Shown here one piece after another: positions 1 through 27,235 of a stretch of DNA of 28,614 nucleotides. The DNA is taken from the IMG/VR virus record IMGVR_UViG_3300042568_000774, one strand, 5' to 3'. The first letter of the stretch is position 1, and each line of letters begins with the position of its first letter. The stretch comes from a virus (Duplodnaviria; Heunggongvirae; Uroviricota; Caudoviricetes). The translations under genes and the position numbers were made by a program. The notes below the pieces were generated by a model. It was not told the DNA's origin. It saw nothing but the letters and a program-made list of their open reading frames with translations, and did not search any database.

Positions 1-21
1 ACCCTGATTGTTTTACTCTCC
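1..21 (-). tRNA. Probable 5' end of a tRNA gene truncated by the window edge
   Basis: Minus strand GGAGAGT-AAAA-CAATCAGGGT resembles the start of the tRNA-Tyr here (GGGTAGT-AAAA-GTCG); it lies at array spacing; anticodon not visible. Confidence 0.35.
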
Positions 22-23
22 AT

Positions 24-91
24 TTTGTAGGATATCGCTTAACCTACGATGTTGATATCATTACACACCTTCGATATTACTATCAGCGATT
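24..91 (-). ncRNA. Candidate structured RNA between tRNA-Arg and the truncated tRNA
   Basis: Stems ATATC/GATAT and GTAGG/CCTAC; the loop hexamer AGCGAT (39-34) is complementary to 5' ATCGCT (90-85). Confidence 0.3.
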
Positions 92-97
92 TTTTTG

Positions 98-169
98 TGT
101 CTCCAGCAGGATTCGAGCCCACATCTTCAAGTCCGTAGCCTGACGTTCTATCCGTTGAACTATGGAGAC
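98..169 (-). tRNA. tRNA-Arg(ACG)
   Basis: Acceptor GTCTCCA/TGGAGAC; anticodon arm TCAGG-CTACGGA-CTTGA; T-loop CTCGAAT. Confidence 0.92.
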
Positions 170-176
170 ATTTTTG

Positions 177-249
177 GGTGACTAAGGAGAATCGAACTCC
201 CATTTACAGAACCACAATCTATCGTGTTAACCGTTACACTATAGCCACC
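177..249 (-). tRNA. tRNA-His(GTG) with encoded G-1:C73
   Basis: G-GTGGCTA/TAGTCAC-C acceptor; anticodon loop TTGTGGT; GTTCGATTC T-arm. Confidence 0.95.
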
Positions 250-256
250 ATATATT

Positions 257-796
257 TTATAAGTTAATAAGTCCGTCGTGTATTTCACAATGACAATTAG
301 AACAAACTAACATACACTTATCAACCTCATCTTTTAATTTATCAAACGATAAACTTTTACCACTAATACTAAAATCTTTCTCTTCAGGGTTAATATGATG
401 AAATTCAAGTGCCCGTTCACATTTATAATATCCACATAATTCACAAGAACCCCCTTTATATTGAATTAACTTTTGTTTAGTTCTTTTTCTCCAATTTATA
501 ACTGATTCAGATGATGTTATTTTTTTTGTAGGTTTTTTAGTTACAACATATTTTAATATTGTTTCAACCGACCTACCTGTCATTTTTCTAACTTTTTTAA
601 CTGAACCTAATTCATCATATAGTTCTTGTAATTTTTTCTTATCATCATCCGATAATCTATCTGAAAAACCACCAACTTTATTTTTAGTACAATGATATGA
701 GATAGTTGATAAAGCACAACCTAAAATTTTTTTAATTTCTTTATACGATTTACCTTCATTTCTTAAAGAAATTATTTGTTCCGAATACCTTTCCAT
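257..796 (-). CDS. HNH homing-type endonuclease with N-terminal HTH-like region
   Basis: C-terminal CELCG...LEFHH...CMLVCSNCHCEIH; N-terminal LRNEGKSYKEIKKILGCALSTISYH is HTH-like. Confidence 0.85.
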   Translation of the reverse strand: MERYSEQIISLRNEGKSYKEIKKILGCALSTISYHCTKNKVGGFSDRLSDDDKKKLQELYDELGSVKKVRKMTGRSVETILKYVVTKKPTKKITSSESVINWRKRTKQKLIQYKGGSCELCGYYKCERALEFHHINPEEKDFSISGKSLSFDKLKDEVDKCMLVCSNCHCEIHDGLINL

Positions 797-847
797 AAAT
801 TAACTTTTTTTGTTAATAATAAATATGTTAATTTTCGAAAAAATTCG

Positions 848-933
848 CTGACGGGGTGGGATTCGAACCCACGATGGAATATTTTCACCGGATTAACAGT
901 CCGGACCGTTCGACCAACTACGGCAACCCGTCA
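848..933 (-). tRNA. tRNA-Asn(GTT) with an unusual 15-nt variable region
   Basis: TGACGGG/CCCGTCA-G acceptor; CCGGA-CTGTTAA-TCCGG anticodon arm; GTGGG-TTCGAAT-CCCAC T-arm; variable region TGAAAATATTCCATC. Confidence 0.85.
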
Positions 934-937
934 ATAT

Positions 938-1010
938 TTACCCCACTTCACCGGGTTAATGGACCGGCTGCCATATGGGAGTGGGGGTTTCCTGTTATTT
1001 CAGGACTCCG
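938..1010 (-). ncRNA. Candidate structured RNA between tRNA-Phe and tRNA-Asn
   Basis: CCTG/CAGG hairpin, then a CCCCACT/AGTGGGG stem enclosing a CCGG/CCGG hairpin; GC-rich against the AT background. Confidence 0.4.
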
Positions 1011-1083
1011 TGGTTCCCCAGAGAATCGAACTCTATCCTCAAGATTTTCAGTCTTGCGTGCAGACCACTTACACAAGAGAACC
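1011..1083 (-). tRNA. tRNA-Phe(GAA)
   Basis: GGTTCTC/GGGAACC-A acceptor; CAAGA-CTGAAAA-TCTTG anticodon arm; GTTCGATTC T-arm. Confidence 0.93.
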
Positions 1084-1087
1084 AAGT

Positions 1088-1228
1088 AATGATAATGTTG
1101 GAGTACCCATCTCGCTCCAATCTTAACTGCTTATTCGTAGTTTTACGGTGCACCGGCAGGGGGTGTGTGAATTCTTTGACCTATCTTGGATTGTCGACAT
1201 CCGAGAGATAGAGAAGACCATTATCATT
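1088..1228 (-). ncRNA. Candidate 141-nt multi-stem RNA between tRNA-Tyr and tRNA-Phe
   Basis: Perfect 10-bp closing stem AATGATAATG/CATTATCATT; inner stems CTATCT/AGATAG, GGAT/ATCC, CTGC/GCAG and TTGGAG/CTCCAA. Confidence 0.55.
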
Positions 1229-1229
1229 G

Positions 1230-1310
1230 TGGGCAGTAGTGGACTCGAACCACTCCCAAAAGGACCAGATTTACAGTCTGGCTGCCGTATCCGAACGACT
1301 TTTACTACCC
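1230..1310 (-). tRNA. tRNA-Tyr(GTA)
   Basis: GGGTAGT/ACTGCCC-A acceptor; CCAGA-CTGTAAA-TCTGG anticodon arm; 10-nt variable arm; AAAA connector in place of U8-N9. Confidence 0.88.
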
Positions 1311-1366
1311 AATTTTTTGTATTGCTCAAATTTAAGACATTTTACTGCTCAAATTTTAGATTTTTG

Positions 1367-1437
1367 TACCTCGAGAGGGAATTGAACCCCCACCATTTGT
1401 ATGTAAGACAAATACGCTCCCATTACGCCATCGAGGC
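1367..1437 (-). tRNA. tRNA-Val(TAC)
   Basis: GCCTCGA/TCGAGGT-A acceptor; TTTGT-CTTACAT-ACAAA anticodon arm; GGTTCAATTCC T-arm. Confidence 0.9.
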
Positions 1438-1491
1438 AAATATATGTTTAGATTCCTCCCACCCTCAAACATATAAACTGAGTGCTGTTCG

Positions 1492-1560
1492 TACCGAGAA
1501 ATGGTATCGAGCCATTCTAGAAATAGATATGAGCCATCTCCGGTCACCTGACCCCTCGGC
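1492..1560 (-). tRNA. Atypical tRNA with CAT anticodon (Met or Ile2)
   Basis: GCCGAGG/TCTCGGT-A acceptor; mini D-arm GGTC-AGGT-GACC; GATGG-CTCATAT-CTATT anticodon arm; AATGG-CTCGATA-CCATT T-arm. Confidence 0.7.
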
Positions 1561-1565
1561 ATTTT

Positions 1566-1610
1566 GGTGGACATAGATTCATCATCTATTTTTGGGTTTC
1601 CACCGAACCC
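1566..1610 (-). ncRNA. H-type pseudoknot between tRNA-Cys and tRNA-CAT
   Basis: S1 GGGTT/AACCC; S2 GGTGGA/TCCACC; L1 is 1 nt, L2 is 0; L3 is an A-run plus an ATAGAT/ATCTAT hairpin. Confidence 0.5.
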
Positions 1611-1614
1611 GTTG

Positions 1615-1686
1615 AGGTGATAGTAGGAATCGAACCCACCTAACTGAGTTTGCAATCCAGTGCCTAAACCAATCGACCATATCACC
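1615..1686 (-). tRNA. tRNA-Cys(GCA)
   Basis: GGTGATA/TATCACC-T acceptor (U73); anticodon loop TTGCAAA; GGTTCGATTCC T-arm. Confidence 0.92.
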
Positions 1687-1693
1687 ATTTTTG

Positions 1694-1765
1694 TTACCCC
1701 TGAGAGAATCGAACTCCCCCCGCATGGACCAAAACCATGTGTACTAACCGATATACGAAGGGGCA
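1694..1765 (-). tRNA. tRNA-Gln(TTG)
   Basis: TGCCCCT/AGGGGTA-A acceptor; CATGG-TTTTGGT-CCATG anticodon arm; GTTCGATTC T-arm. Confidence 0.92.
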
Positions 1766-1774
1766 AAATATTTT

Positions 1775-1862
1775 TTAGTTAAAGAACGATTACCACAATT
1801 ACGTTCGCCCCGGACTCTCTCCGGACATTCTTTTTTGGGTGTGGATTAAACTATTTAACTAA
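1775..1862 (-). ncRNA. Candidate 88-nt structured RNA between tRNA-Ser and tRNA-Gln
   Basis: Perfect 9-bp closing stem TTAGTTAAA/TTTAACTAA; hairpins CCGGA/TCCGG and GAACG/CGTTC; loop TGTGG is complementary to upstream CCACA. Confidence 0.5.
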
Positions 1863-1866
1863 CCCG

Positions 1867-2034: not shown

Positions 2035-2070
2035 AAAAAAAAATCCTGAACTTTTTGAGTTCAGGATTTT
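2035..2070 (-). terminator. Intrinsic terminator
   Basis: AAAATCCTGAACT/AGTTCAGGATTTT 13-bp stem with a T-tract on the minus strand. Confidence 0.8.
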
Positions 2071-11818: not shown

Positions 11819-13495
11819 TTAAAATCCTGATTCGTCAGCTGTTTTTATTTTTTCCGGAGTTATAATTGTATCATTATCGACCGGAGCCGGTATTGGTAAA
11901 TTTTCAAGAGAATCCACTTTTCTTTTGAAATCCTCGTCTAATTTATTTTTTAAAGAATCTAACTTTTGTTTAGAATCATCTATAATTGGTTTAACTTTTT
12001 TAATTACTTCTTCACCATCTTCTTTATCTAGTTTTGTTTCAGGATTTGCTAACCATAATATCATATCTTTAATTCCAACAATAACATTATCCGCAAATCC
12101 AGGTATAAGACTTTCCCAAGTATTGAATTGTTCGTAAGCGTATTGTAAATAAACTTTTAAAACGGTTTCTAACTCTACTTTAGCATCTTTGTATTTTTTC
12201 TTATATTCGTTAATTTGTTCATCTGTCTCTAAACCAAGTGCCTTATAATAATTTTTATTATAATTTTTTGATAAAGTTTGTACCCACCCCAAATCTTCAA
12301 AAAAATACCAATCTTCAACAATTTTAGCAAAAACATCAACAGCCAATTCTAAACCAGCAATTATTAAGTTTATTCTAACATATACCGTTGCGTATTCTGC
12401 AATATATTTTTTTGCCGCGGCACTTTTTCCCGCTTTTTTAATATATTCACCCCAAGCTGATGGGACTAATGTCGACCCATACCAAAAATCAGCCTTTAAT
12501 TCACCAAACTTAGTAGAATGGTCACCCTTTAAATCCATATTTTTAAGCCTTACTAAATCACCCCACATTTCTGATTTACTACCGTATTTCTTTTCAACCC
12601 TTTTTTTATTTGCGTAAGTGATGTCTTTCATTTGTGACCAAAATTTACTTATTCTATCATTAAAAGTCCCATACTCTTTCTGAAATTCCTTTTCAAAGGC
12701 ACCGGTTGCTAATTTTTTGGCTCTACCATATCCATTTAAATTTTCTTTATCTAATCTTTTTTTAACGCTAGGAGGTACATTTTTTGATATCCAATCATTT
12801 ATTTTATCAAAATTATCCCTTCTCATTTTTGTTAATTTTTCAAAATTTAATGAAATTTGTTTTTTATAATTTGCAATATTTGTAGAACCAGTATCAATAC
12901 TAAGTTGTTTAATTAATTCCAAAGTTTCATTTAATAATGTTTCTTCAGATTTAAACATACTTTTAACTGAATCAAAAAAACTATAAAAAGGTTTTGCCCA
13001 ATTTTTACCATGAACCTTTTCCAACCATTTAACCTGATTAGATGTAATTCCTCCTAATTCTGTAAATGTTTTATCTAATGCTTTTTTAGTTTTAGCCCAT
13101 TTAGTACCAGCTCTTCTCATTTTATTAAGAACTGCGTTCATATAACCTTCTGTTTGTGCATCAATTGGATTATTTCTTCTTGTTTTTGCGGCTTTTATTG
13201 CTCGTTCAAGTTCCGCAATTGTTTTAACACCGTTTGGTGTTTTTATAAAATTTGAAAATTTTAATTTAATTGCATTGTCCGATGCGTCATCAATTTCCCC
13301 CTTGATAAATCGTCTAATTAACGCTCTTTCTTCTGTAGTTACTGCTTTTAACGAACCCCTAACGAGTGCGTTAAATATTGTAGCAATAGTTTCATTTGTT
13401 GGACCTTCTAAAAGTATATTAACTTCTTCAGTAATTACAGGTAAACCCATATTACTTCTTATTTGATTAATTTCTAATATTAATTTATTTTCCAT
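11819..13495 (-). CDS. Large basic helical protein, possible ejection protein
   Basis: 558 aa; LILE...ITEE...LLEG leader; one hydrophobic segment (VYVRINLIIAGLELAVDVFAKIV). Confidence 0.7.
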   Translation of the reverse strand: MENKLILEINQIRSNMGLPVITEEVNILLEGPTNETIATIFNALVRGSLKAVTTEERALIRRFIKGEIDDASDNAIKLKFSNFIKTPNGVKTIAELERAIKAAKTRRNNPIDAQTEGYMNAVLNKMRRAGTKWAKTKKALDKTFTELGGITSNQVKWLEKVHGKNWAKPFYSFFDSVKSMFKSEETLLNETLELIKQLSIDTGSTNIANYKKQISLNFEKLTKMRRDNFDKINDWISKNVPPSVKKRLDKENLNGYGRAKKLATGAFEKEFQKEYGTFNDRISKFWSQMKDITYANKKRVEKKYGSKSEMWGDLVRLKNMDLKGDHSTKFGELKADFWYGSTLVPSAWGEYIKKAGKSAAAKKYIAEYATVYVRINLIIAGLELAVDVFAKIVEDWYFFEDLGWVQTLSKNYNKNYYKALGLETDEQINEYKKKYKDAKVELETVLKVYLQYAYEQFNTWESLIPGFADNVIVGIKDMILWLANPETKLDKEDGEEVIKKVKPIIDDSKQKLDSLKNKLDEDFKRKVDSLENLPIPAPVDNDTIITPEKIKTADESGF

Positions 13496-22170: not shown

Positions 22171-22737
22171 TTATTTTAAGTATTCCAACAATTTTTCTTT
22201 AACACCTGATTGTTTGATTCCTTCATTATCTCTTGGTGTATGAACAAAGTTAGATAAACCCCACTTTTGTTCCAAACCATTTGATTCCAAACCTAATGTT
22301 AAATCATCAATACAAACCCAATGTGTAATTTCAGGGTGGTCGGTTAAATATTGTTTAACCTCTAAACATCTTTGTTGTTCATATTTTGCATTTCGATTCC
22401 ATTCGTATTCGTCAGGACTATCACAATCAAAATAACGTTTGGTAACACCGATTGGTTTTTTGACGATTCCTTCTGAAAGGTAATATTCACCAAGTTCTTC
22501 TAAATTGGCATATAATCTCCAATCGGAAGACACAACGATTTCTGCTCCGGTTTCTTCTAATACCTGATTCAATACCTTGATTGCCTTTTTGTCAAAATAA
22601 TCAAAACGATATTTCACCTCAACATCAGGGTCATTCATCACCAAAGATATTTTATCTTTTTTTCGTTTATTAGCACGACTCCCCCAATTATTCGCCAAAC
22701 AGATAACACCATCGTTATCCAAAAATATTACTTTCAT
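22171..22737 (-). CDS. HAD-family phosphatase (HAD_SAK_2 / Swiss Army Knife RNA-repair type)
   Basis: VIFLDNDGV, IVVSSDWR and WVCIDD motifs. Confidence 0.85.
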   Translation of the reverse strand: MKVIFLDNDGVICLANNWGSRANKRKKDKISLVMNDPDVEVKYRFDYFDKKAIKVLNQVLEETGAEIVVSSDWRLYANLEELGEYYLSEGIVKKPIGVTKRYFDCDSPDEYEWNRNAKYEQQRCLEVKQYLTDHPEITHWVCIDDLTLGLESNGLEQKWGLSNFVHTPRDNEGIKQSGVKEKLLEYLK

Positions 22738-24828: not shown

Positions 24829-26685
24829 TTATTCAGATTTAACTTCTTCAAATTCAACATCTGAAGCATTTATATCTGTTTCACTTTCATTTACACTATT
24901 GTATAAATCCTGAGTGATGGTTTGGAACTTTTGGGTTAGTTCTTCCATAAGTGTTTTACAACTTTCAACATCTTTATTAGAATGTGATTCTTTCAATTTA
25001 TCAAGAATAGTTGTTATTTCTGTTTTTTGTTCTTCAGAAATCTTATCCTCTAAATCAGTTAAAGATTTACTTGTTTGGAAAATTAAATTGTCCGCCGAGT
25101 TTAATGTGTCAACATCTTCTCTAACTTTTTTGTCCGCCTCAGCATTTTCTTCAGCTTCAGCCTTCATTTTCTCAATCTCTTCTTTAGATAAACCTGAAGA
25201 AGCCTCAATTCTAATTGATTGTGTTTTGTTTGTGGCTTTATCAACCGCAGAAACATTAATAATACCATTCGCATCAATATCAAAGACCACTTCAATTTGT
25301 GGAACTCCTCTCATTGCTGGTGGTAATCCATCTAAATGGAATCTACCAATTGTTCTGTTGTCTTTCGCCATTGGTCTCTCTCCTTGTAAGACGTGGATTT
25401 CAACTGAAGGTTGGTTATCAACAGCTGTTGAGAATACCTGTGATTTTTTGGTTGGGATTGTTGTGTTTGCTTCAATTAAACGAGTCAATACACCACCCAT
25501 TGTTTCAATACCCAAAGATAATGGTGTTACGTCTAATAACAACACGTCTTTTACATCACCAGCTAATACTCCCCCTTGAATAGCGGCCCCTAAAGCAACT
25601 ACCTCATCCGGATTCACACCTTTTGATGGTTCTTTACCGAAGAACTCTTTTACCGCGTTTTGAATAGCAGGTATTCTTGTTGTACCACCAACTAAAATAA
25701 CCTCGTCAATATCACCAACTTTCAATTTAGCATTTTTCAACGCTGATTTACAAGGTGCGATAGTTCGTTTGATTAAGTCGTCAGCAAGTTGTTCAAACTT
25801 AGCTCTTGTTAAAGTTTTAACCAAGTGTTTTGGTCCGGTTGCGTCAGCAGTTAAATAAGGTAAGTTAATCTCGGTTTGAGATGATGAAGATAATTCAACC
25901 TTCGCTTTCTCAGCACCTTCTCTTAACCTTTGTAACGCCATCGCATCTTGAGAAATATCAATTCCATTCTCGTTTTTGAACTCCTCAACTAAATAATCAA
26001 TGATTACTCGGTCAAAGTCGTCCCCTCCTAAGTGTGTGTCACCATCGGTAGATAATACCTCAAATACACCACCACCTAAATCCAATACGGATACGTCGTG
26101 AGTTCCCCCACCGCAGTCAAATACTACGATTTTACTATCCCCTTTTTTGTCAAGACCATATGCAAGAGCCGCCGCGGTTGGTTCGTTGATAATACGACGA
26201 ACATTTAATCCGGCAATTTCACCCGCCTCTTTTGTAGCCTGACGTTGGGCATCGTTAAAGTAAGCCGGTACGGTAATAACCGCATCAGTTACTGATTCAC
26301 CTAAATAATCTTCAGCAGTTTGTTTCATCTTTTGTAAGATGATAGCCGATAATTCTTGTGGTGAATATTTTCTATCGTCAATTTCAACTCTTGGTTGAGA
26401 ACCTTCTTTTACAACAGAGTAAGGCACTTTCCCAATTTCAGTTTTACTTTCGTCATAGGTTGACCCCATAAAACGTTTGATAGAAGAAATGGTTTTAGTC
26501 GGATTGGTTACCGCTTGTCTTTTTGCTGGGTCACCAACTTTTCTTTCTGATTCGTTGATGAATCCAATGATTGAAGGTGTTGTTCTTTTTCCTTCTGAAT
26601 TTGCTATTACAACAGGTTCGTTACCCTCCATTACGGATACACACGAGTTAGTTGTTCCTAAGTCAATTCCAATAATTTTTCCCAT
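24829..26685 (-). CDS. dnaK: Hsp70 chaperone DnaK
   Basis: [61 protein letters not shown] and [14 protein letters not shown] motifs; 618 aa. Confidence 0.98.
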
Positions 26686-26857: not shown

Positions 26858-27235
26858 ATGAAATTATTTTTAGACGATAACAGACAACCTTACGATGTAT
26901 TTAAGAACACTATTGACCCAATTTATGAAAATAATAATGAATGGTCAATAGTAAAAAACTATGAAGAATTTGTGAACATCATATTAGAGTCAGGATTACC
27001 CGAAGTAATCTCATTTGACCACGATTTATCTCAAAACCATTATTTACCGGAAAATCAATCTAATATCGATTATAATACCATAAAAGATAAAACCGGTTAT
27101 GATGCGGCGTTATGGTTGGTTGGGTATTGTAGAATGAATAATGTTGAATTACCTACGATTAAGGTTCACTCGGCTAATCCTGAAGGTAAGAAGAATATTG
27201 AAAGAGTGTTACATCTCACTAACGAAAGCTCGTAA
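26858..27235 (+). CDS. Cyclic-phosphate processing receiver-domain protein (cREC-like)
   Basis: LFLDD.R, ISFDHDL, KTGYD and VHSANPEG motifs. Confidence 0.8.
   Translation: MKLFLDDNRQPYDVFKNTIDPIYENNNEWSIVKNYEEFVNIILESGLPEVISFDHDLSQNHYLPENQSNIDYNTIKDKTGYDAALWLVGYCRMNNVELPTIKVHSANPEGKKNIERVLHLTNESS

Follow-up and report, generated by a model that had tools for sequence, protein, structure and literature searches.

Conserved structured RNAs, several of them pseudoknotted, directly abut tRNA ends in a phage tRNA array

We analysed the tRNA array carried by a stretch of 28,614 nucleotides (nt) from a virus of the Caudoviricetes (IMG/VR record IMGVR_UViG_3300042568_000774), referred to here as the window. 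At least four uncatalogued families of RNA, termed S1, S3a, S5 and S6, lie between the tRNA genes of this one phage operon. These are conserved structured RNAs in which stems are kept by compensatory changes, and covariation shows the predicted pseudoknots in S6, S3a and S1; support for a fifth element, S9, is weak. The four are single-copy, independent of position, on the tRNA strand and set directly against tRNA ends. A first-pass annotation, made from the sequence alone, had described a cassette of different folded, pseudoknot-capable RNAs in five spacers of the array; conservation and covariation bear out this description for four of the five, and the spacer at 24-91 (S9) was poorly supported. 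The elements are probably genes for small RNAs, one copy of each, that take the place of tRNAs in the array; their products would be freed by tRNA-processing enzymes and act in trans.

Structured RNAs between the tRNA genes

The elements, and the gaps of the array in which they lie, are as follows.

1776-1865, minus strand: S1, a pseudoknotted RNA of ~90 nt (slot 1865-1766), from comparison of subtypes
1613-1438, minus strand: S3, the composite Cys-Val gap of 176 nt, comprising S3a, an atypical tRNA(CAU) and S3c
1566-1610, minus strand: S3a, a 45-nt H-type pseudoknot, from covariation
1491-1560, minus strand: atypical tRNA-like gene with anticodon CAU, from a call at 1568-1491 by ARAGORN -ps90
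1438-1490, minus strand: S3c, a variable hairpin, from one homologue
1311-1365, minus strand: S4, an AT-rich linker, from its tandem units
1088-1228, minus strand: S5, a 141-nt four-way-junction RNA (slot 1228-1084), from covariation
941-1009, minus strand: S6, a 69-nt H-type pseudoknot (slot 1009-934), from covariation
25-96, minus strand: S9, with ends conserved in relatives

Relatives were collected through exact matches to S6 and S1 words and through a single protein anchor, the neighbouring glycosyltransferase, which gave four relatives, the closest of which (L001) had 84% protein identity. Searches with a 21-base word from the S6 core hit 65 viral contigs; a second word, taken from the opposite half of the element, hit 67 viral contigs and at least 118 contigs from metagenomes. 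S6 was found in at least 191 viral or metagenome contigs, always as one copy per locus (191 copies in 191 loci), and its pattern had no exact match in 185,579 prokaryote genomes. A gapped pattern anchored on the tRNAs (Tyr ... Phe) had no match in viral contigs because the tRNAs diverge too fast. In L001, conservation was clear for S1, S5 and S6 and for the first 120 nt of S3, whereas the AT-rich S4 linker of the same operon was unrecognisable and thus provides an internal control for neutral divergence.

Covariation in these relatives was strong for S6, S3a and S5 against both of two controls, one in which pairing partners were slid and one in which pair counts were shuffled; the former is the more telling, as the shuffle control ignores kinship. 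Among 30 diverse copies of S6, 92.6% of cells were paired, compared to 34–63% with slid partners, and there were 8 double-sided pair changes. Helix H1 (GGAGU:ACUCC) was swapped to GAAGU:ACUUC or GAGGU:ACCUC, and the H3 pseudoknot (CCCCC:GGGG) to GUCCU:AGGAC or ACACU:AGUGU. An optional hairpin within the H1 loop (H2) was missing in two relatives (L071 and L183), and H4 is a hairpin with the loop UCCRUUAAN, followed by UGAAG. The joiner CAUAUGGCAG and the UGAAG were essentially invariant, with one UCAAG variant. The half of S6 outside the search word was on average 0.83 identical, compared to 0.62 for the adjacent tRNA-Phe in the same loci, and selection on S6 appears to be stronger than on the neighbouring tRNA. 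An 8-codon open reading frame in S6 (AUG...UGA) was considered and rejected because the compensatory stem changes alter its residues.

Every S6 copy that was read by eye was directly preceded by a tRNA-like 3' end. With ARAGORN at default settings, S6 was ≤3 nt from an upstream tRNA end in 121 of 141 distinct contexts; the upstream tRNA was Phe (99), Asn (19) or Gly (3), and the downstream tRNA varied (His, Lys, Ile).

S3a was present as 42 copies in 42 loci. It consists of a P1 stem (GGGUU:AACCC), a pseudoknot (GGUGGA:UCCACC) and, in loop 3, a hairpin with a covarying stem around a conserved UGAUGA loop. Pairing reached 97.7%, compared to 28–51% with slid partners, and 9 of 17 pairs, including 3 in the pseudoknot, changed on both sides. 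The element followed a tRNA (Gln, Cys, Gly or Asp) directly, within 3 nt, in 36 of 39 contexts.

S5 occurred in 104 of the 191 loci, with one copy in each. Its 40 pairs were supported by 37 diverse copies, 92.9% being paired compared to 32–46% with slid partners, and 25 of the 40 changed on both sides. The structure is closed by a perfect 10-base-pair (bp) stem, as the first-pass annotation had described for two of the spacers; in the other, S1, an 8-bp pairing is real but constitutes a pseudoknot. The long arm of S5 bears an invariant, self-complementary (palindromic) GUCGAC loop, a UGC:GCA stem holds an inner hairpin, and the 3' strand of the 3' hairpin continues directly into the closing stem, on which this hairpin stacks. 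The GGGU of the 3' hairpin loop faces ACCC, making a pseudoknot plausible, and this pairing was invariant except in one copy in which it was compensated. Pairing of the loop sequence CGAGA with an upstream UCUCG was rejected, as the upstream word was not conserved, and RNAcofold prediction of an S5 dimer gave trivial full-length swapping. S5 was ≤3 nt from an upstream tRNA end in 53 of 82 contexts, with Tyr (31), Glu (11) or Val (11) upstream and Phe (46), Val (9) and also Asp downstream. As judged by the contexts of S6 and S5, element position was independent of the identity of the flanking tRNA.

Support for S1 was read directly from the sequences, its two subtypes sitting one alignment column apart. 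The P1 stem (GGGU:ACCC) encloses a loop that pairs with the 3' end (UAGUUAAA:UUUAACUA), and the element carries two hairpins, with the invariant loop UAAUUGUGGUAAU facing an invariant CCAC. In subtype B, P1 was flipped to ACCC:GGGU and both hairpins were compensated, while the pseudoknot was swapped to UAUCAA:UUGAUA or CAUCAA:UUGAUG. The two long loops are the same in both subtypes, and their CCAC and GUGG probably form a second pseudoknot. All 21 distinct contexts placed S1 ≤3 nt after a tRNA end.

S9 has a 5' strand (A7-UCGC) that is conserved, then a middle that varies and, on the 3' side, a hairpin (GUAGG-UUAAGCGAUAU-CCUAC); in divergent relatives only the ends were conserved and the middle was replaced. 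Its hairpin loop is able to pair with the 5' strand, and a pseudoknot is possible, the sole variation being one-sided (G-C to G-U). Pairing of the 3'-most hairpin loop with an upstream strand had been proposed for S1, S5 and S9 alike; in S1, covariation shows the pseudoknot between the P1 loop and the 3' end, while S5 offered the one compensatory case and S9 the one-sided change described above.

The GC content of the five elements (S6, 0.51; S5, 0.43; S3a, 0.42; S1, 0.37; S9, 0.33) exceeded the window average of 0.31, consistent with the earlier description of these spacers as GC-richer. The words CACACCC and CCCAAAAA...ATGTCC, which that description had highlighted as shared between spacers, have different structural roles and are lost in divergent copies; they are coincidental, and shared words of S1, S3a and S5 were rejected as a sign of homology.

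Array layout, tRNA genes and source phage

The other features in and around the array are listed in the order of transcription.

2040-2070, minus strand: terminator hairpin of the upstream gene, with a stem of 13-14 bp and a T run after it; flank conserved in L001
1866-1948, minus strand: tRNA-Ser(UGA), the first gene of the array (ARAGORN, Rfam)
1693-1765, minus strand: tRNA-Gln(UUG) (ARAGORN, Rfam)
1614-1686, minus strand: tRNA-Cys(GCA) (ARAGORN, Rfam)
1366-1437, minus strand: tRNA-Val(UAC) (ARAGORN, Rfam)
1229-1310, minus strand: tRNA-Tyr(GUA), class II (ARAGORN)
1010-1083, minus strand: tRNA-Phe(GAA) (ARAGORN, Rfam)
847-933, minus strand: an 87-nt tRNA(GUU) whose variable arm is long (ARAGORN, Rfam)
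257-796, minus strand: HTH-HNH homing-endonuclease gene inserted in the array (domain searches)
97-248, minus strand: tRNA-His(GUG) and tRNA-Arg(ACG) (ARAGORN, Rfam)
1-24, minus strand: 5' part (24 nt) of another atypical gene, tRNA-Ser(GCU)-like, truncated where the window ends (our reading of the full copy, L001 14391 onward; no tool call)

ARAGORN called nine tRNA genes in the array and Rfam eight, all on the minus strand, so that the RNAs are to be read from right to left. G-U pairs in the covariation tables make sense only in the minus-strand direction, which likewise places the RNAs on that strand. The array transcript runs from ~1950 down to 1 and continues past the window edge. A strong terminator closes the upstream gene at 2070-2040, and the array is thus its own transcription unit; we infer that its promoter lies at ~2035-1949, downstream of the terminator.

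Among 1,318 distinct tRNA calls in the fetched arrays, 94% were followed by C74 and then mostly AA, a pattern that suggests a shared 3'-processing signal, and CCA was never encoded by the tRNAs of these arrays. As C74 is generic to the tRNA flanks, the C before each element belongs to the tRNA flank and not to the element.

The Cys-Val gap, taken as a spacer in the first-pass annotation, in part holds an atypical tRNA(CAU), which had been missed. This gene has an 8-bp anticodon stem, the loop CUCAUAU, a minimal D arm (4-nt D loop) and a T arm. It was called as tRNA-Met(cat) at 1568-1491 by ARAGORN -ps90, and its homologue in one relative (L033) was called tRNA-Met at default settings; in the window, default ARAGORN and Rfam at E ≤ 10 gave no call at 1568-1491. 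The last 53 nt of the gap, S3c, form a poorly conserved hairpin with only one homologue beyond the window (72% identity, with a compensated stem end). A Bacteroidota promoter motif in S3c (1469-1437) was rejected, as the last base of its -7 box is already the first of tRNA-Val, and the motif therefore cannot serve that tRNA.

S4 consists of 2–4 tandem units of ~23 nt (…AAAUUUGAGCAGUAAA…; …UCUUAAAUUUGAGCAGUAAA…) and is not a folded RNA. Although not conserved in L001, it was also present in 22 other loci. Its unit junctions (TTTG…TAAATTTG) resemble Bacteroidota -33/-7 promoter boxes but have a short spacer, and S4 may be an internal promoter.

Other tRNA genes of the arrays are also unusual. 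The tRNA(GUU, Asn) at 847-933 is class-II-like, with a body of 87 nt and a variable arm of 15 nt, and is 85% identical to the 'tRNA-OTHER' of Cellulophaga phage phi4:1. In L001, we read an atypical tRNA-Phe(GAA) at 12877-12950, with the T loop AGCGUAA, that was missed by ARAGORN and is followed, again by our reading, by a spacer of ~145 nt. The HTH-HNH gene (257-796) splits the array of the window, and relatives of its HNH part occur, at the DNA level, in jumbo phages of Yersinia, Klebsiella, Prevotella (Lak) and Bacteroides.

Several features indicate that the source is a large Bacteroidota phage. As read from the sequence, tRNA-His has an encoded G-1 and tRNA-Tyr is class II; a Bacteroidota-type promoter word is enriched in the window (9 matches compared to 2.9 expected); and, among 50,697 phage records, DNA matches to the array tRNAs were found only in Cellulophaga phages. 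The array spacers had no match in these records, and no cultured relative was found among them. Outside the array, the window carries a glycosyltransferase cluster and genes for Hsp70, for RNA-repair-type domains and for many orphan proteins. The Hsp70/DnaK gene (24829-26685, minus strand) is full length (Pfam E 1e-258), here in a phage genome. A HAD_SAK_2 ('Swiss army knife' RNA repair) protein is encoded at 22171-22737 (minus strand) and a cREC_REC cyclic-phosphate-processing receiver protein at 26858-27235 (plus strand), and RNA-end-healing functions are thus represented in a phage with a large operon of tRNAs and noncoding RNAs.

Possible roles of the elements

The arrangement favoured here is a single minus-strand transcription unit in which several tRNA slots would be held by S1, S3a, S5, S6 and perhaps S9, and in which aberrant tRNAs would occur alongside pseudoknotted RNA genes. 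Each element starts directly after N73-C74 of the preceding tRNA and ends a few A/U-rich bases before the next. Cutting of the upstream tRNA by a 3' endonuclease (e.g. RNase Z) and of the downstream tRNA by RNase P would be expected to release discrete RNAs of 45–145 nt. Both ends of these RNAs would be locked in a closing stem or pseudoknot, which would be expected to protect them from exonucleases. The terminal hairpin of S5 and of S1 is predicted to stack on the closing helix in the way that a T arm stacks on a tRNA acceptor stem, and these two may therefore themselves be substrates of RNase P or RNase Z. The released RNAs would act in trans on a putative conserved partner, which may be a protein of the host or of the phage or else an RNA machine; their near-invariant loops and joiners point to a specific molecular partner and away from service as a simple spacer. 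S5 may in addition self-assemble through its invariant palindromic GUCGAC loop.

Several observations weigh against this reading. Sampling by exact S6 words inflates the conservation of S6 and favours arrays that keep those words. Between 20 and 35% of S5 and S6 contexts lacked an adjacent tRNA call at the default threshold, although those S6 contexts that were read by eye contained an atypical tRNA-like 3' end. The minimum free energy of single sequences on the transcribed strand was only 1.0–1.3 standard deviations better than that of dinucleotide shuffles (z -1.0 to -1.3, not significant), and folding relative to shuffles was slightly better on the wrong strand than on the transcribed one. 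Comparison with such shuffles had been proposed as a check of the cassette, and taken alone it would have led to rejection of the finding; single-sequence folding energy is no useful test here. Release and stability as discrete RNAs rest on inference, and the partner in trans is putative. Finally, exact abutment on a tRNA 3' end would also be expected of a cis-acting processing element or a ribozyme.

The foremost alternative, which we regard as unlikely, is that the elements are cis-acting devices for tRNA maturation that process tRNA ends, possibly as a new ribozyme. It would account for the exact junction with the upstream tRNA 3' end in nearly all copies and for the invariant joiner nucleotides, and the array tRNAs lack an encoded CCA, like those linked to theta ribozymes (PMC10879173). 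The helix order P1-P2-P1'-P4-P2' is that of the hepatitis delta virus (HDV) ribozyme minus P3, and S6 lies directly after N73-C74 in all copies read, within the distance of ≤1 nt between 5' end and tRNA 3' end that is used to recognise HDV/theta ribozymes. The HDV/theta fold was nevertheless rejected when fitted by hand, in agreement with the first-pass annotation: P3, L3 and P1.1 are absent, the 5' strand of P2 runs straight into the 3' strand of P1 in both S6 and S3a, and the sole extra hairpin of S6 precedes P2. The joiner equivalent to J4/2 is UGAAG in S6 and U/C then G/A in S3a, so that there is no conserved C. No ribozyme model matched (Rfam, E ≤ 10), the upstream tRNA varies, and an array of 20–30 tRNAs contains only a single copy of each element, its other tRNAs having C74 and an A-rich trailer with no element. 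The cREC cyclic-phosphate-processing and HAD_SAK_2 RNA-repair domains encoded in the window would suit cis maturation, but phages rich in tRNAs commonly carry RNA-repair genes for unrelated reasons. A narrower form of the idea, to which we give only a slim chance, is that S6, S3a and S1 constitute a new class of catalytic pseudoknots linked to tRNA 3' ends. Such a class would represent an RNA-only system that cuts or marks the tRNA end it abuts, with an H-type fold and embedded hairpin distinct from HDV/theta and every known self-cleaving class.

We consider it very unlikely that the elements act in cis on transcription, as antitermination or insulator RNAs (like put or EAR) for a long, untranslated, hairpin-rich operon. 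The untranslated operon RNA does span many kilobases, and S1, set directly after the first tRNA, lies downstream of both the terminator and the putative promoter. However, only S1 is promoter-proximal, with S5, S6 and S3a at varied internal positions and in varied orders; immediate tRNA processing would untether the RNAs from the polymerase; there was no match to put or EAR models in Rfam; and such a role does not need several unrelated families per operon.

That the elements represent tRNAs in decay or tRNAs that have diverged strongly, or else neutral leftovers of homing-endonuclease shuffling, with no function of their own, is highly improbable: although part of one spacer is a tRNA(CAU)-like gene, S5 has a cloverleaf topology (a closing stem and three arms), T4 rnaC retains a T arm and an HNH gene lies within the array, no tRNA was called in S1, S3a, S5, S6 or S9 (ARAGORN -ps70; Rfam, E ≤ 10), conservation of S6 exceeds that of tRNA-Phe, and invariant loops and joiners with covarying stems indicate selection and not decay, which largely refutes this explanation for S1, S3a, S5 and S6.

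Comparison with known RNAs

Searches of positions 1-2400 of the window with Rfam 15, at both the gathering threshold and E ≤ 10, recovered only the tRNAs of the array and weak terminator matches. The first-pass annotation had named a match to a known Rfam family as an outcome that would remove novelty; none of the elements gave such a match even at E ≤ 10. This applied to the HDV-family, pistol, hammerhead, twister and hatchet ribozymes and to riboswitch pseudoknots (preQ1-II, SAM-II and similar). By our reading, the helix order of pistol also does not fit.

In the preQ1-II riboswitch, loop 3 of an H-type pseudoknot harbours a hairpin. S6 and S3a share this topology, with stem 2 formed between the stem-1 loop and the 3' strand and with a hairpin in loop 3, but the conserved nucleotides are unrelated. 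The elements have no downstream open reading frame or Shine-Dalgarno sequence, and tRNAs follow within a few nt.

The Escherichia coli 3'ETS-leuZ sponge is a functional RNA freed from a tRNA precursor by the tRNA-processing machinery. It is short, largely unstructured and located at the end of its operon, whereas the present elements are phage-borne, multi-helix pseudoknots with invariant cores.

Theta ribozymes adjoin the 3' ends of CCA-less tRNAs in Bacteroidota-type phages (PMC10879173). Like the present elements, they are compact pseudoknots that are found on only some tRNAs and abut the tRNA 3' end; they were described from gut samples (PMC10879173), whereas the elements studied here come from environmental metagenomes.

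The T4 species C/D RNAs, encoded by rnaC and rnaD, had been named as a precedent, and the T4 tRNA cluster indeed has the same layout: rnaD comes only 1 nt downstream of tRNA-Arg, a gap of 6 nt then separates it from rnaC, and the segB homing endonuclease lies within the cluster. Like the present elements, the T4 RNAs are small (119–139 nt in T4), share the strand of the tRNAs, lie within a phage tRNA cluster and abut a tRNA. By blastn, rnaC and rnaD shared only chance words of 7–9 nt with the present elements (E > 0.4). T4 rnaC keeps a canonical T arm, which S1, S3a, S5 and S6 lack; the present elements, unlike the T4 RNAs, are pseudoknots; and at least four unrelated families lie between tRNAs here, whereas rnaC and rnaD lie at the cluster end. 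Small stable RNAs have been known in phage tRNA clusters since T4, and, to our knowledge, their function is unsolved; we know of none for the T4 species 1/2 RNAs (rnaC, rnaD).

GOLLD, ROOL and freshwater-1 RNAs are, like the present elements, orphan structured phage RNAs near or inside tRNA islands. Covariance models for the three (RF02032, RF03087 and RF02979) had no match in the window, and their sequences and folds differ from those of S1, S3a, S5 and S6, which are much smaller than GOLLD and ROOL and abut tRNA ends directly. GOLLD and freshwater-1 RNAs were, however, found by Rfam inside related tRNA arrays that also carry S5 and S6, with GOLLD/freshwater-1 matches at the following positions.

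L008:7072-7506: GOLLD/freshwater-1 match
L033:8418-8479: GOLLD/freshwater-1 match
L003:17892-17954: GOLLD/freshwater-1 match
L008:9263-9325: GOLLD/freshwater-1 match

GOLLD and ROOL are reported to occur near phage tRNA islands and to self-assemble (PMC12286853), and S5 for its part has an invariant self-complementary loop. GOLLD and ROOL show how elaborate, as machines, the phage RNAs next to tRNA islands can be. The elements described here provide defined, synthesisable RNAs of 45–145 nt for structure work, ribozyme assays and partner pull-downs, and the gaps of phage tRNA arrays deserve to be annotated as genes rather than spacers.

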